From the NCBI GenBank assembly GCA_965203805.1, contig OZ241917.1, positions 4,832,001-4,896,000 on the forward strand: a stretch of 64,000 nt of DNA, read 5' to 3'. Position numbers and translations under genes: made by a program. Below, in pieces: positions 4,255 through 7,748 of this stretch; positions within the stretch are counted from its first letter, which is position 1; each line of letters starts with the position of its first letter. The notes beneath the pieces were generated by a model, which saw only the letters and a program-made list of their open reading frames with translations, searched no databases and was not told where the DNA came from. This DNA is from Candidatus Latescibacterota bacterium. Lineage in GTDB: Bacteria; Latescibacterota; UBA2968; GCA-2709665.

Positions 4255-5313
4255 ATGGCCAGACAGACCAAACTCGGCTGGGGCATCATTGGCGCCGGAA
4301 TGATCGCGGGTCATTTCAGGTCGGCAATCGACGCGTGCCCCAACGCGGAACTCGTTGCGGTCTGCAACTATAATGAGGAGAAGGGAAGGAAATTCGCGTT
4401 CGAGTCCGGCGGCATCCGGTTTTACAGACACTATCAGGACCTGGTCGCGGACCCGAATGTGCACATCGCCGGGATCTGCACCCCGTCCGGCATGCACGCG
4501 GACAACGTGATTGCGGCCGCCGGCGCCGGCGTGCATTCCCTTTGTGAGAAACCGCTGGACGTCACGCGTGAGAAAATGGATCGGATGATCGGAGCCTGTC
4601 GCGATGCCGGCGTCAAACTCGGCTGTATTTTTCAGAGTCGAACCAGCGACGAAGCGATAAGGGTGCGAAACGCCGTCAGGAACGGAGATCTGGGCAAACT
4701 GGTGCTGGCCGACGCCCTGTTGAAGAATTACCGCTCACAAGAGTACTACGACAGCGCCGGATGGCGGGGAACCTGGAAACACGACGGCGGCGGCGCGCTG
4801 ATGAACCAGGGGGTCCACGGCGTGGATCTCTTGTTGTGGCTGATCGACGACGACGTGGAATCCGTCTTCGCCCGCGCCGAACACAAGGTGCGCGACATCG
4901 AGGTGGAAGATACCGCCGTTGCCACCATCAAATACAGGAGCGGCGCGTTCGGAACGCTCATCGGCACCACTTCCTGCAATCCCGGAGAGGCGACGCGGCT
5001 TGAAATTCACGGTGATTCCGGGACCATCACCATGAGTGGTACCGAAATCACGCGCTGGGCCACCACCACCGAGGAAGACGGACGCGCGGTTGACGCGTTT
5101 CCACCAAGGCAGATCGGCGCGGCCGGGAACGTGGGGACCGCCAGCGCCGTCGCGCCCGGCCACGGCTTTCTGGTAGACGACATCACCCGCGCCGTCCTGG
5201 AAGACCGGGAGCCCCATATCCCGGGGGAGTCGGCGCGGAAGTCGGTGGACCTGATCCTGGCCATCTACGAATCCGCACGGACCGGACAGGAGATTTTCAT
5301 GGACTCGTGGTAG
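4255..5313 (+). CDS. Gfo/Idh/MocA family oxidoreductase (tandem paralog of the upstream gene)
   Basis: GIIGAG, CEKP, GGGALMNQGVHGVD; long stretches identical to 3122-4195 (e.g. VESVFARAEHKVRDIEVEDTAVA). Confidence 0.93.
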   Translation: MARQTKLGWGIIGAGMIAGHFRSAIDACPNAELVAVCNYNEEKGRKFAFESGGIRFYRHYQDLVADPNVHIAGICTPSGMHADNVIAAAGAGVHSLCEKPLDVTREKMDRMIGACRDAGVKLGCIFQSRTSDEAIRVRNAVRNGDLGKLVLADALLKNYRSQEYYDSAGWRGTWKHDGGGALMNQGVHGVDLLLWLIDDDVESVFARAEHKVRDIEVEDTAVATIKYRSGAFGTLIGTTSCNPGEATRLEIHGDSGTITMSGTEITRWATTTEEDGRAVDAFPPRQIGAAGNVGTASAVAPGHGFLVDDITRAVLEDREPHIPGESARKSVDLILAIYESARTGQEIFMDSW

Positions 5314-5326
5314 GCGTCATGAACCA

Positions 5327-5468
5327 AGCGTCCTGTCCCAAAAATACCTCACCATTCTTCCGACGATACATCCCGTCTCGCTGCGTACCTCCCGCTCGCC
5401 GACCCTACCCATGTCGCCTGCTGGCGGACAAAACGCCTTTGGATCTAACCTACTGGGGGACAAGGGCT
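5327..5468. mobile_element. Possible degenerate MITE
   Basis: Imperfect terminal inverted repeats AGCGTCCTGTCCC (5327-5339) and GGGACAAGGGCT (5457-5468) around about 140 bp of non-coding DNA. Confidence 0.3.
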
Positions 5469-5527
5469 ATATCTCTTCCATCATCTTTCATTTTCTCTTC
5501 GTCCTTTTTCTTGCACGCCCAAGAAAA

Positions 5528-5760
5528 CGTCGTTGGCGCGCTTGGCGCCACTTGCGGTGGCAGGAACTGTGAGCAGAGCGTATCTTTGTCTTAGCGACCG
5601 GGAGTCGAGGCCGTGTTCTAATTGGTGGATGATACCCCGTAAGAAAACGTGGTCCAGGGATCTGTGCGGACTTGAGATTGGTGACACCCTTGGGTGATCC
5701 CGTTTAGGAAAGTGATGTGACCGCCATCCCCCCTCCCGGAAACCCATAAGGAGGAGGACA
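5528..5760 (+). ncRNA. Candidate bridge RNA in the IS110 left non-coding end
   Basis: Two parallel modules: CCCGT-AAGAAAA (5636-5647, matches target left arm + core) followed by GGTCC (complement of target right arm GGACC), and CCCGT-TTAGGAA (5699-5710, matches IS right end + core). Exact RNA ends unknown. Confidence 0.7.
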
Positions 5761-5762
5761 CC

Positions 5763-7133
5763 ATGGTTGGCAAAGGTACCCCCAGGAAGTCTCGGAAGCC
5801 AAAGGGTTTGTCCACGGTGCATACGCGTGCTGCCGGTGTTGACGTTGGATCCCGGTTTCACGTTGTTGCCGTGCCTGAGGATTTGTGTGCAGAACCCGTA
5901 CAAACGTATCAGAGTTTTACCGGCGACCTACACCGGTTAGGGGATTGGCTGGAGGCGGTTGGCATCACGACGGTGGCGATGGAATCGACCGGTATCTATT
6001 GGATTCCGCTATTTGAAATCCTCGAAGCCCGTGGCCTGGAAGTGTTATTGGTCAACGCAAGGGATGTGAAGCAGGTACCGGGTCGCAAAACCGACGTCAA
6101 CGATGCGCAGTGGCTCCAGCAGTTGCATCAATACGGGCTGTTGCGTGGTAGTTTTCGTCCAGCGCAAGAGGTGGCCACGTTGCGTGCGTATCTGCGTCAC
6201 CGTGAGGGATTGGTTTCCTATGCGGCCGCCCACATTCAACACATGCAGAAGGCGCTGATGCAGATGAACCTTCAGTTGCACCACGTGCTTTCTGACATTA
6301 CCGGTGTGACGGGTATGGCCATTATGCGGGCGATCGTGGCCGGCAACCACGACCCGCGCCAGTTGGCGAGTATGCGGGATAGACGCTGCAAAGCGCCGAT
6401 CGAAACCGTGGAAGCCGCCTTGACGGGACACTATCAGCCAGAGCACTTGTTTGCCCTGCGTCAGGCCATTGAGTTATATGATATCTACCAGGCCAAAATG
6501 GCCGAGTGTGACAAGGCCATTGAGGCTGCCTTGGCACGCCTGCATCCGGCCGAAGCGGTGTTGCCTGACAGTTCCACCCGGCCCAAGCCACGCCGTCGGA
6601 AGCCGAAGACCAACCAGCCTGGATTTGACATCCACACGGCCATGGTCACGCTGTTGGGCACGGATCTGACCCAGATCCACGGATTTGCACCCTATACGGT
6701 CTTGCGACTGGTCGGCGAGTGCGGCACCGATATGAGCCGGTGGCCCACAGCGAAGCATTTTACCTCGTGGCTCACGCTGTGTCCCGGCAGCAAGATCTCG
6801 GGGGGCAAGCTGCTTTGTTCCAGGACGCGGCGTTCGAACAATCGGGCAGCCACGGTCTTTCGCATGGCAGCGCTCAACGTCGGTAAGACCTCCACGGCCC
6901 TGGGCGCTTTCTATCGACGCTTGGCCGCACGCGCGGGCAGAGCCAAGGCCATCACCGCCACGGCACGTAAACTCGCCGTGTTGTTTTACAACACGTTACG
7001 TTATGGAATCGATTATTGCGATCCGGGCGTCGACGCTTACGAAACGCAACACCGCCAACGAATGCTCAACGGCCTGCGCCGACGCGCGAAAGCACTGGGG
7101 TACGACATCTCATTGGCTGCTTCCCCAACGTAG
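5763..7133 (+). CDS. IS110-family transposase/recombinase
   Basis: DEDD RuvC-like motifs GVDVG, AMEST, KTDVND; C-terminal Tnp domain with KISGGK serine; strong RBS AAGGAGGAGG. Confidence 0.96.
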   Translation: MVGKGTPRKSRKPKGLSTVHTRAAGVDVGSRFHVVAVPEDLCAEPVQTYQSFTGDLHRLGDWLEAVGITTVAMESTGIYWIPLFEILEARGLEVLLVNARDVKQVPGRKTDVNDAQWLQQLHQYGLLRGSFRPAQEVATLRAYLRHREGLVSYAAAHIQHMQKALMQMNLQLHHVLSDITGVTGMAIMRAIVAGNHDPRQLASMRDRRCKAPIETVEAALTGHYQPEHLFALRQAIELYDIYQAKMAECDKAIEAALARLHPAEAVLPDSSTRPKPRRRKPKTNQPGFDIHTAMVTLLGTDLTQIHGFAPYTVLRLVGECGTDMSRWPTAKHFTSWLTLCPGSKISGGKLLCSRTRRSNNRAATVFRMAALNVGKTSTALGAFYRRLAARAGRAKAITATARKLAVLFYNTLRYGIDYCDPGVDAYETQHRQRMLNGLRRRAKALGYDISLAASPT

Positions 7134-7471
7134 TTCCTTAGGAAAGGACCAAAAAGAACGGCGCCTGCCTGCCGAGCAGGCTTCGGCGCAGGCAGGCCGC
7201 TCGGCGCCTGTCTGCGTGCGTGAGACAGCACGCACAGGCAGGCGGGGCCGGTTTTTCCGTGAACTACCTCAGTGGCGCCAATGGAAATTGGATGCCCTTT
7301 CACCGAAACCGCCCATCCCGAACGATGTTGCTGGACGGAGTAGCACGGAAAAACCCCTCCCTTCACCACCTTGCGGAAAGAAGGTCGTCCGGGGAGTTCT
7401 TCCTGGCGGATTCACGTGGGTCCGCCGTTTGTCTTTTGTCCTTGATTTAAGCCGACAGCTTTCGTCTGATC

Positions 7472-7748
7472 GCTAACGGCTGTCGTCATCATACAGGTAC
7501 CAATCGGTCTACAACGGTACGTCCCGACCGGAGAACTACCAGAGCAGAGCGCGCTGATCCGTCAAGCTACGCGGTTTGATTTGCTACTGATGGTGACAGG
7601 CCAGAGTATCCCGTGCATACTGTGAGGGTGTTCGCGCTGTGCATATGGCAGGCCCCGCGCCCAGCGGCGACTTTTGGTTCCTTTTGGTCGCTTCAAAAGG
7701 AACCCGCCGGAGGCAGGGAATTTGGGGAGATGTGGATGTTGAATTTGA
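7472..7748 (+). repeat. 277-bp non-coding structured repeat B, copy 1
   Basis: Ungapped reverse-complement match to 20200-20476; pseudoknot/triplex motif at 7667-7703. Confidence 0.9.

Follow-up and report, generated by a model that had tools for sequence, protein, structure and literature searches.

Here we describe an element of the IS110 family of insertion sequences (IS) in Candidatus Latescibacterota bacterium (GCA_965203805.1, contig OZ241917.1), whose genome is a single contig of 5.87 Mb. The element lies within a stretch of 64,000 nucleotides (nt) of that contig, hereafter the window, by whose positions coordinates are given unless otherwise indicated. Our reading, to which we assign a probability of about 0.8, is that it is an intact, probably mobile, RNA-guided member of its family, and that it belongs to a very large and poorly described clade. 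Taken by itself, the window element is an ordinary IS110 element in a palindromic repeat; the architecture of the clade and its choice of targets are of more interest.

An initial annotation of the window had recognised an element of the IS110 family whose core is AA and which sits in the A-tract of a structured repeat, had reported that excision of 5528-7144 restores a perfect 13-bp hairpin, and had suggested a search for empty sites and further copies. Indeed, deletion of these nucleotides in silico yielded a perfect 13-bp inverted repeat. When the restored 33-nt hairpin was used to query the whole genome, allowing up to 4 substitutions, 13 raw matches were returned, one being the reverse reading of another, which leaves 12 distinct uninterrupted hairpins with the expected junction. 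Ten of them are identical to one another and differ from the restored site solely in the first base of the loop; with this T-loop form as the pattern, ten copies are exact and the other two differ by 1 and 2 mismatches, respectively. The computed empty site (left plus right flank) is also continuous across the junction in more than 15 other copies of the repeat (99% identity over query positions 106-211, for example). Given 12 uninterrupted copies in the genome, restoration of the hairpin is beyond chance. The A-tract reads A5 in the empty sites; in the occupied one it is split into A4 before and A3 after the element, an overlap of 2 nt that corresponds to the AA core. This shared AA is a core dinucleotide of the IS110 type and there is no target duplication; nor does the element carry terminal inverted repeats. 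The empty-site evidence comes from paralogous hairpins in the same genome; at the orthologous locus in the closest species representative (96% identity in the flanking gene) the whole hairpin repeat is absent, and hence there is no empty allele.

The encoded protein confirms that the element belongs to the IS110 family of DEDD RNA-guided recombinases. Its open reading frame (ORF) matches the Pfam domains DEDD_Tnp_IS110 (E 1.3e-19) and Transposase_20 (E 3.8e-11), as well as the NCBIfam model NF033542, 'IS110 family RNA-guided transposase' (247.7 bits, cutoff 140). In an alignment of 20 sequences, D27, E74, D111, D114 and S346 are invariant, the last within an SG motif (S346-G347), and these residues are probably catalytic. 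A search with phmmer against PDB sequences gave nothing at E<=1, whereas a profile of 20 homologs matched IS621 (8wt6) at E 3.7e-7 with the SG motif aligned. The AlphaFold model has a mean confidence (pLDDT) of 69.5, and its ten best Foldseek matches are all IS621 and ISCro4 chains (E 1.9e-7 to 1.2e-6, probability 1.00), followed by Nop56/58 and RuvC; TM-scores are only 0.29/0.40, and identity in the fold alignment is 16-17%. A non-coding region of 235 nt precedes the ORF, and the stop codon (7131-7133) lies 11 nt before the end of the element. The features of the element and its insertion site are collected in Table 1.

Table 1. Positions of the element, its predicted bridge RNA and the host hairpin within the window
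Feature	Position	Strand	Description
IS110-family element	5528-7144	+	1617 bp with one AA core; boundaries from 12 empty sites
Left terminus (right donor)	5528-5568	+	Starts CGTCG at 5528; segment kept in 59-bp mini-copy
Conserved bridge-RNA core (predicted)	5599-5738	+	~140 nt, enclosed by helix P0 (5599-5604 / 5733-5738)
Helix P1, 5' strand	5609-5614	+	GGCCGU; closes target module
Proposed right target guide	5615-5619	+	GUUCU; would pair with top strand AGGAC 7145-7149, one G-U
Target-module inner stem-loop	5624-5638	+	GGUGG...CCCC; between right and left target guides
CCCGT motifs	5636-5640 and 5699-5703	+	Precede the module 7-mers
Left target guide (predicted)	5641-5647	+	AAGAAAA (5 nt + AA core); sense of target top strand, would pair with bottom strand
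Helix P1, 3' strand	5649-5654	+	GUGGUC; contains GGTCC proposed earlier as a guide (5651-5655)
Donor module	5657-5730	+	Helix P2 5657-5661 / 5726-5730; 5' strand 5670-5679; inner hairpin 5680-5701
P2 extension	5666-5669 / 5722-5725	+	Pairing read by eye, not counted
Left donor guide (predicted)	5704-5710	+	UUAGGAA = IS right end + core (7138-7144)
Segment after left donor guide	5711-5721	+	AGUGAUGUGAC; candidate region for right donor guide; GATG 5714-5717, TGAC 5718-5721
Recombinase gene	5763-7133	+	456 aa; Shine-Dalgarno GGAGGAGG at 5750-5757
Right terminus	7138-7144	+	Left donor TTAGG (7138-7142) + core AA (7143-7144)
Host hairpin, 5' arm	5501-5513	+	GTCCTTTTTCTTG
Host hairpin, loop	5514-5519	+	CACGCC
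Host hairpin, 3' arm, first 8 nt	5520-5527	+	CAAGAAAA; left target CAAGAA, then core AA 5526-5527
Host hairpin, 3' arm, remainder	7145-7149	+	AGGAC; 7145-7150 = AGGACC
Remaining composite host repeat, including AGGAC	7145-7420	+	GC-rich hairpins, then T-run

We compared the element with homologous loci from species genomes (80) and from metagenome contigs (80), whose recombinases share 61-75% amino acid (aa) identity and come from many phyla. The ~150 nt preceding the start codon are strikingly conserved in these homologs. RNAalifold, run on 58 distinct homologs, predicted five helices, namely P0, P1, the inner stem-loop of the target module, P2 and the inner hairpin of the donor module, and pair counts were set against 500 shuffled alignments and slid controls. 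Paired cells amounted to 94.4%, compared with 86.3% in shuffled and 43-54% in slid controls; the covariation score was 0.312 versus 0.159 shuffled (0/500); 16 of the 29 pairs have changes on both sides; and none of the 500 shuffles reached any of five measures. Conserved G-U pairs assign the RNA to the + strand. The helices frame two parallel modules, each with a closing helix, a 5' strand ending in UUGG, an inner stem-loop, the motif CCCGU and a 7-mer. The stability of the single-sequence fold of 5528-5765 was not above that of shuffles (z +1.04), so the structure rests on comparative data alone, and Rfam (evalue mode), searched with 5000-7700, returned no curated family for the bridge RNA.

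Helix P1, which closes the target module, deserves separate mention. At alignment pair 23-72 the 58 homologs have GU (34), GC (13), AU (9) or no pair (2), and the two strands occur as GGCC/GGUC, GGCC/GGCC and GACC/GGUC, with a double change, AACC/GGUU, in locus L059. Two observations weigh against P1: its support is mainly conservation, with a double change in one of its six pairs, and 21 of the 58 cells at pair 27-68 are unpaired.

We then related the 7-mers of the two modules to the ends and flanks of the element at 148 homologous loci. The initial annotation had read AAGAAAA as the left target guide and TTAGGAA as the left donor guide, and both readings held; the positions it gave for CCCGT, AAGAAAA, CGT, GGTCC (5651-5655), TTAGGAA, GATG and TGAC are all correct. 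The module-1 7-mer, which is AAGAAAA in the window, varies among relatives (AAAAAAA, TAAAAAA, TTGACAA, TGTCAAA, CAAGAAA, AGGGAAA, TGGCAAA, TTAAAAA). Its own exact sequence was found in the upstream flank, defined as the 82 nt from 185 to 267 nt upstream of the start codon, at 93 of the 139 loci with enough flank (86/127 when redundancy was removed), and in 93/93 of these cases the base that follows is C, the conserved first base of the IS. Guides of other classes occurred in the same flank window in 128 of 1905 trials, mostly among mutually overlapping poly-A classes. For 10 of 16 classes of 7-nt guides, including TTGACAA, TGTCAAA, CAAGAAA, AGGGAAA and TTAAAAA, at least one locus has its own 7-mer exactly abutting the IS. 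The class CAAAAAA gave no exact match in eight loci and sits instead at TAAAAAA flanks, which indicates that the first guide position is loose.

The module-2 7-mer is TTAGGAA in 128 of the 148 loci, and the exact module-2 7-mer recurs downstream of the ORF, as the right end of the IS, in 129 of them. This donor guide is highly conserved because the recombinase stop codon falls inside it: in most relatives (L004-L172) the stop TAG lies within TTAGG, the consensus end being GGAGTTTCTTAGGAA and that of the protein GVS. The window ORF differs from these in ending 11 nt earlier, at another TAG. Both left guides end in AA at 145 of the 148 loci; two near-identical elements from different sources (L022 and L140) have AC in both, as the core of the target guide CTTCTAC and of the donor guide TCGAGAC. 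This covariation confirms the left target guide, the left donor guide and the AA core.

A second insertion in the same genome bears on the left target guide. The sole other genomic match to the element is a mini-copy of 59 bp (G000:C1:2904345-2904403, minus strand; locus L002:1482-1540), in which the initial 40 nt of the left end (3 mismatches, 1 gap) run directly into the final 19 nt of the right end (1 mismatch, 1 extra base); it could be a non-autonomous derivative or what was left after a deletion. Its site is the 3' end of a coding region, not the hairpin repeat, and the corresponding site in a related species is uninterrupted, though diverged. Its left flank, ...CCGAAGAAAA, ends in AAGAAAA, which lends independent support to the left target guide, and its right flank begins AGCGG. 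As this site has no hairpin, it also suggests that insertion can do without one.

The right target guide is harder to place. The initial annotation had assigned this role to GGTCC (5651-5655), which would pair with GGACC in the target and follow the left guide at a distance of only 3 nt, giving nearly contiguous target guides. The attraction of this proposal is that, in the window element, GGTCC complements right-flank positions +2 to +6 without a mismatch. Across homologs, however, the 5-mer at this site is nearly invariant (GGTCC in 76, GGCCC in 13 and others in 10 of 99 unique combinations), whereas the flanks are diverse (AGCCG, AGTTG, TGAAT, AAGAG and others), and the complementarity of the two averages 2.41/5 against 2.40 for shuffled pairs (730 of 2000 shuffles reach it), with 5/5 in the window alone. 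The few variants instead track the upstream GGCC strand through GU, GC and AU pairs, and through AACC/GGTT in L059, as expected of helix P1, whose 3' strand the segment forms; and the right flank of the mini-copy is AGCGG, not GGACC. We therefore regard this assignment as highly improbable, and with it falls the 3-nt spacing of the guides. Of the covariation between guides and flanks that had been anticipated, the part concerning 5641-5647 and the left flank was borne out, but 5651-5655 does not track the right flank.

An unbiased scan of all RNA columns against the right flank pointed elsewhere. The best pair was column 30, in the 5' strand of module 1, with flank position +3 (mutual information, MI, 0.50), compatible in 43 of 49 cases (G-C 22, A-T 10, G-T 6, T-G 3, T-A 2). 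We then scored the five bases after P1, 5615-5619 in the window, against flank positions +5 to +1, leaving out 28 of the 148 loci in which the 5' strand could not be parsed or the right flank was missing; the remaining 120 usable loci give the 99 unique combinations. The mean was 3.61/5 compatible, compared with 2.96 +/- 0.07 in shuffles (0/2000), and positions +2, +3 and +4 each exceeded all 2000 shuffles. The signal is specific to the register: z is 9.4 in register 0, but -0.9, 0.8 and 2.7 in the slid ones. Full 5/5 matches occur with differing guide and flank sequences, in the window (GUUCU/AGGAC) and at L016/L130, L081, L100, L115, L138 and L151; scores are poor at L093, L117, L140 and L067.

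Several observations count against this assignment, and some of them favour a simpler scheme in which the 7-nt left guide acts alone, an 'AG' after the core is read by the protein or only weakly, and the covariation of the 5' strand is a by-product of shared ancestry. Most right flanks start with AG; AGC or AGT is found in most elements, so the signal comes from about 45 of the 99 combinations, with a mean of 3.3/5. The same element tolerates varied flanks, as in the CAWAIS copies (AGT, ACT, AGC) and at L023-L028, which differ at +1, and the mini-copy has the flank AGC against a guide U at +3. The shuffle controls, moreover, ignore relatedness among the elements and carry no correction for phylogeny. 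Set against this scheme are the three flank positions that each beat every shuffle, the loss of the signal on sliding the register, and the unrelated guide and flank pairs that reach 5/5 with different sequences. We consider action of the left guide alone unlikely, and 5615-5619 the probable right target guide. A further point against it concerns the core. Opposite the core most relatives have UU, but the window element has AA (5620-5621) and other elements CA or CU, irrespective of the target. These sequences thus give no evident sign that the right guide pairs with the core, as is the rule in IS621.

A right donor guide was not found, which also counts against our overall reading. The donor 5' strand and the 16 nt after the left donor guide were scanned, over all pairs of positions, against positions 1-10 of the IS left end, giving a best z of 3.5, MI of at most 0.16 and no coherent register. 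GAU (5714-5716) is conserved throughout the family, as is a (G/A)TC near the left terminus; the two could pair, matching GATG, the first of the two candidates put forward in the initial annotation (the other is TGAC), and here the indication is conservation, not covariation.

Is the element still mobile? One fact against this is that the genome holds a single full copy, by both DNA and protein search, although 12 matching hairpins stand empty. One full copy beside 12 empty perfect targets is what might be seen if it were an immobile relic trapped at its site, and a DNA search of 60 relatives did not find the element, returning only distant pieces of 65-70% identity in four genomes. Its right end, too, departs from the family consensus, the ORF stopping 11 nt before the end and not inside TTAGG. 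Against such a relic stand the intact ORF with every residue that is invariant in the family, the intactness of all RNA helices and motifs, and a near-identical copy in a sponge metagenome. The latter contig corresponds exactly in extent to 5516-7147 of the window, with 3 differences in 1632 nt, and a contig of another organism covers 5523-7159 with 38 differences. The sponge contig has a depth of 213, compared with 21.6 for the contig of the flanking gene; contig depth is not copy number, and this is a weak hint that the element is multi-copy elsewhere. On balance we judge a trapped relic to be a minority possibility, if the most serious of those considered here, and favour an intact and probably mobile element. 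Joints of 5525 to 7143 in two contigs (X1 and X12) were examined as possible excision products and set aside: they have only 20-23 nt on one side, and the simplest explanation is that they are other empty copies of the repeat.

We envisage transposition as follows. Transcription of the left end would yield a bridge RNA of ~140 nt (5599-5738) with two parallel modules; a promoter scan of 5300-5800 gave one consensus match on the minus strand and nothing informative, and among the public sequencing runs found to contain the region none is recorded as RNA. The guides of module 1 would read the target, the right guide (5615-5619) by pairing with the top strand and the left guide (5641-5647) with the bottom strand, and the left donor guide of module 2 would match the right end of the IS. 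In a putative circular intermediate with the two ends abutted, the DEDD/Ser recombinase would exchange strands at AA and so place the element in the 3' arm of the hairpin. The element may be active in this way at the present day.

The scheme has much in common with IS621 and ISCro4 (Durrant 2024, PMC11208160; Hiraizumi 2024, PMC11208158). All combine a DEDD RuvC-like domain with a serine-bearing Tnp domain, encode their RNA in the left end, ahead of the gene, and have a target and a donor module, the left guides of which carry the 2-nt core and pair (by prediction in the window element) with the bottom strand; they share a short right target guide on the top strand, and their natural targets are repeated hairpins. 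However, protein similarity is remote, and the 456 aa of the window recombinase compare with chains of 305-328 residues. The core is AA where IS621 has CT, and left guides of 7 nt compare with 8-9 nt there. The module order reported for IS621 is stem, left guide, stem-loop, right guide (PMC11208160, PMC11208158), with the 5' side pairing with the bottom strand (PMC11208160), and here this is reversed, the left guides following the inner stem-loops on their 3' side and the proposed right target guide preceding its stem-loop on the 5' side. Also unlike the IS621 described there, the donor and target modules are nested together in an outer helix and the right guide has no evident coverage of the core.

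In guide order the clade of the window element resembles the seekRNAs of the IS1111 group. In these RNAs, the complement of the top strand is reported to come first in the IS1111-type elements ISEc11, ISKpn4 and ISPa11, and the order to be reversed in ISEc21, which is of the IS110 type (Siddiquee 2024, PMC11187229). The same source describes IS1111 elements as having a downstream non-coding region and subterminal inverted repeats of 11-13 bp (PMC11187229). Unlike these, the window element has its RNA region upstream and only 11 nt between its stop codon and its right border. No consistent subterminal inverted repeats of the IS1111 kind (~7-17 bp) occur in the 104 distinct elements whose two ends could be compared, the best being 4-5 bp in 72 of them, at inconsistent offsets. 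Given the upstream RNA, the short right end and the lack of consistent subterminal repeats, we file the element in the IS110 family, with neither the IS621-type architecture nor membership of the IS1111 group.

The clade to which the recombinase belongs is large. At E<=1e-10 there are at least 8000 relatives, the best 97% identical, and none of the matches listed carries an informative name; plasmid copies occur in Citrobacter and Enterobacter. From their sequences, members appear to share proteins of ~455 aa, the AA core and an RNA in the left end. The reconstructed target of most relatives is an A-run inside another transposase gene. In IS3-type targets (L006, L030, L034, L053, L057), HTH_Tnp_1 lies upstream and rve downstream, with ...ERDILKK at the junction; in an IS630-type target (L073), HTH_33 lies upstream and DDE_3 downstream of the insert; and at L029 the target is an IS21-like gene. 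A plasmid locus (L084:2230-2260) is likewise listed among insertions into other transposase genes. The A-runs at these insertion sites we take to be the programmed-frameshift sites of the IS3 and IS630 families. A literature search returned no relevant paper on IS110 elements that target IS3 frameshift sites, though one may nonetheless be in print. The clade thus appears to home into other insertion sequences, and the window element appears to be a retargeted member of it.

We tentatively propose, while holding it somewhat less likely to be right than wrong, that the clade forms a third architectural class. Such a class would combine a left-end RNA, as in IS110/IS621, with the order right guide, stem-loop, left guide, as in IS1111, and would have 7-nt left guides (5 nt plus an AA core) behind an invariant CCCGU and a right target guide that need not cover the core. 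On this proposal the clade, with at least 8000 proteins, would ancestrally be a 'hyperparasite' of IS3/IS630 frameshift A-runs, and the window element a case of natural retargeting onto a host hairpin (AAAAAAA to AAGAAAA, and GC/AC-U to GUUCU). The architecture may already be among the published bridge-RNA predictions for ISfinder elements.

The hairpin that the element has entered is itself a conserved feature of its hosts. The hairpin family is genus-wide, being present in 12 of 14 other species representatives of the genus and in one of seven genomes from other genera of the taxonomic family, with up to 21 copies per genome. Compensatory stem variants (GCCC/GGGC, GGCC/GGCC, CTTA/TAAG) occur in relatives and point to maintenance of the stem as such; of the structures suggested in the initial annotation, which included a pseudoknot or triplex, it is the hairpin alone that they support. 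In the window's own genome, 10 of 13 hairpin sites have no overlap with any ORF of at least 150 aa, and the other three coincide with short ORFs running through GC-rich repeat. As the hairpins are intergenic, the suggestion of the initial annotation that they offer a 'safe harbour' is plausible; such safe-zone logic is already known for other IS110 elements. ISPpu10, ISPpu9 and IS621, which enter hairpins of the repetitive extragenic palindromic (REP) type, likewise use one precise position in a multi-copy intergenic palindrome, in keeping with the 'safe zone' logic (bioRxiv 10.64898/2026.03.19.712850). For ISPpu10 the DNA hairpin itself is reported to be required for insertion (bioRxiv 10.64898/2026.03.19.712850), whereas here the hairpin may not be required, as the mini-copy site argues.

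The hairpin sits inside a composite repeat of ~300 nt (5380-5527 plus 7145-7420; loci L085-L092), made up of modular GC-rich hairpins and a terminator-like element, GGGGCCGG-T5, and also carrying a long-range complementary pair, TTTTTCCGTG ... CACGGAAAAA. Rfam (evalue mode) gave no family for the host repeat, and eight intact copies returned sub-threshold chance matches alone. Where the oxidoreductase gene upstream ends, the stretch 5313-5421, just beyond its stop codon, is a member of a repeat of ~95-110 nt, which is abundant in all 15 genomes of the genus (at least 32 matches scored per genome, hundreds in total). A match to Mu-gpT-DE at 5249-5301, at the end of the upstream gene, was sub-threshold (22.3 bits versus a gathering value of 49, E 0.044) and is probably due to chance.

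To conclude, bridge recombinases are under development as programmable tools for genome writing, and their mechanism is known almost wholly from IS621 and ISCro4, with a CT core and the left guide on the 5' side. With its AA core, its short left guides and its reversed guide order, a huge natural clade of this kind would enlarge the range of possible designs, and would also serve as a natural test of how general the IS621 rules are, among them coverage of the core by all guides and the handshake positions. The preference of the clade for slippery A-runs in the transposase genes of other elements hints at transposons that live on, or inactivate, their own kind, and the window element suggests that a few base changes in the RNA may move such an element onto a repeat of its host.

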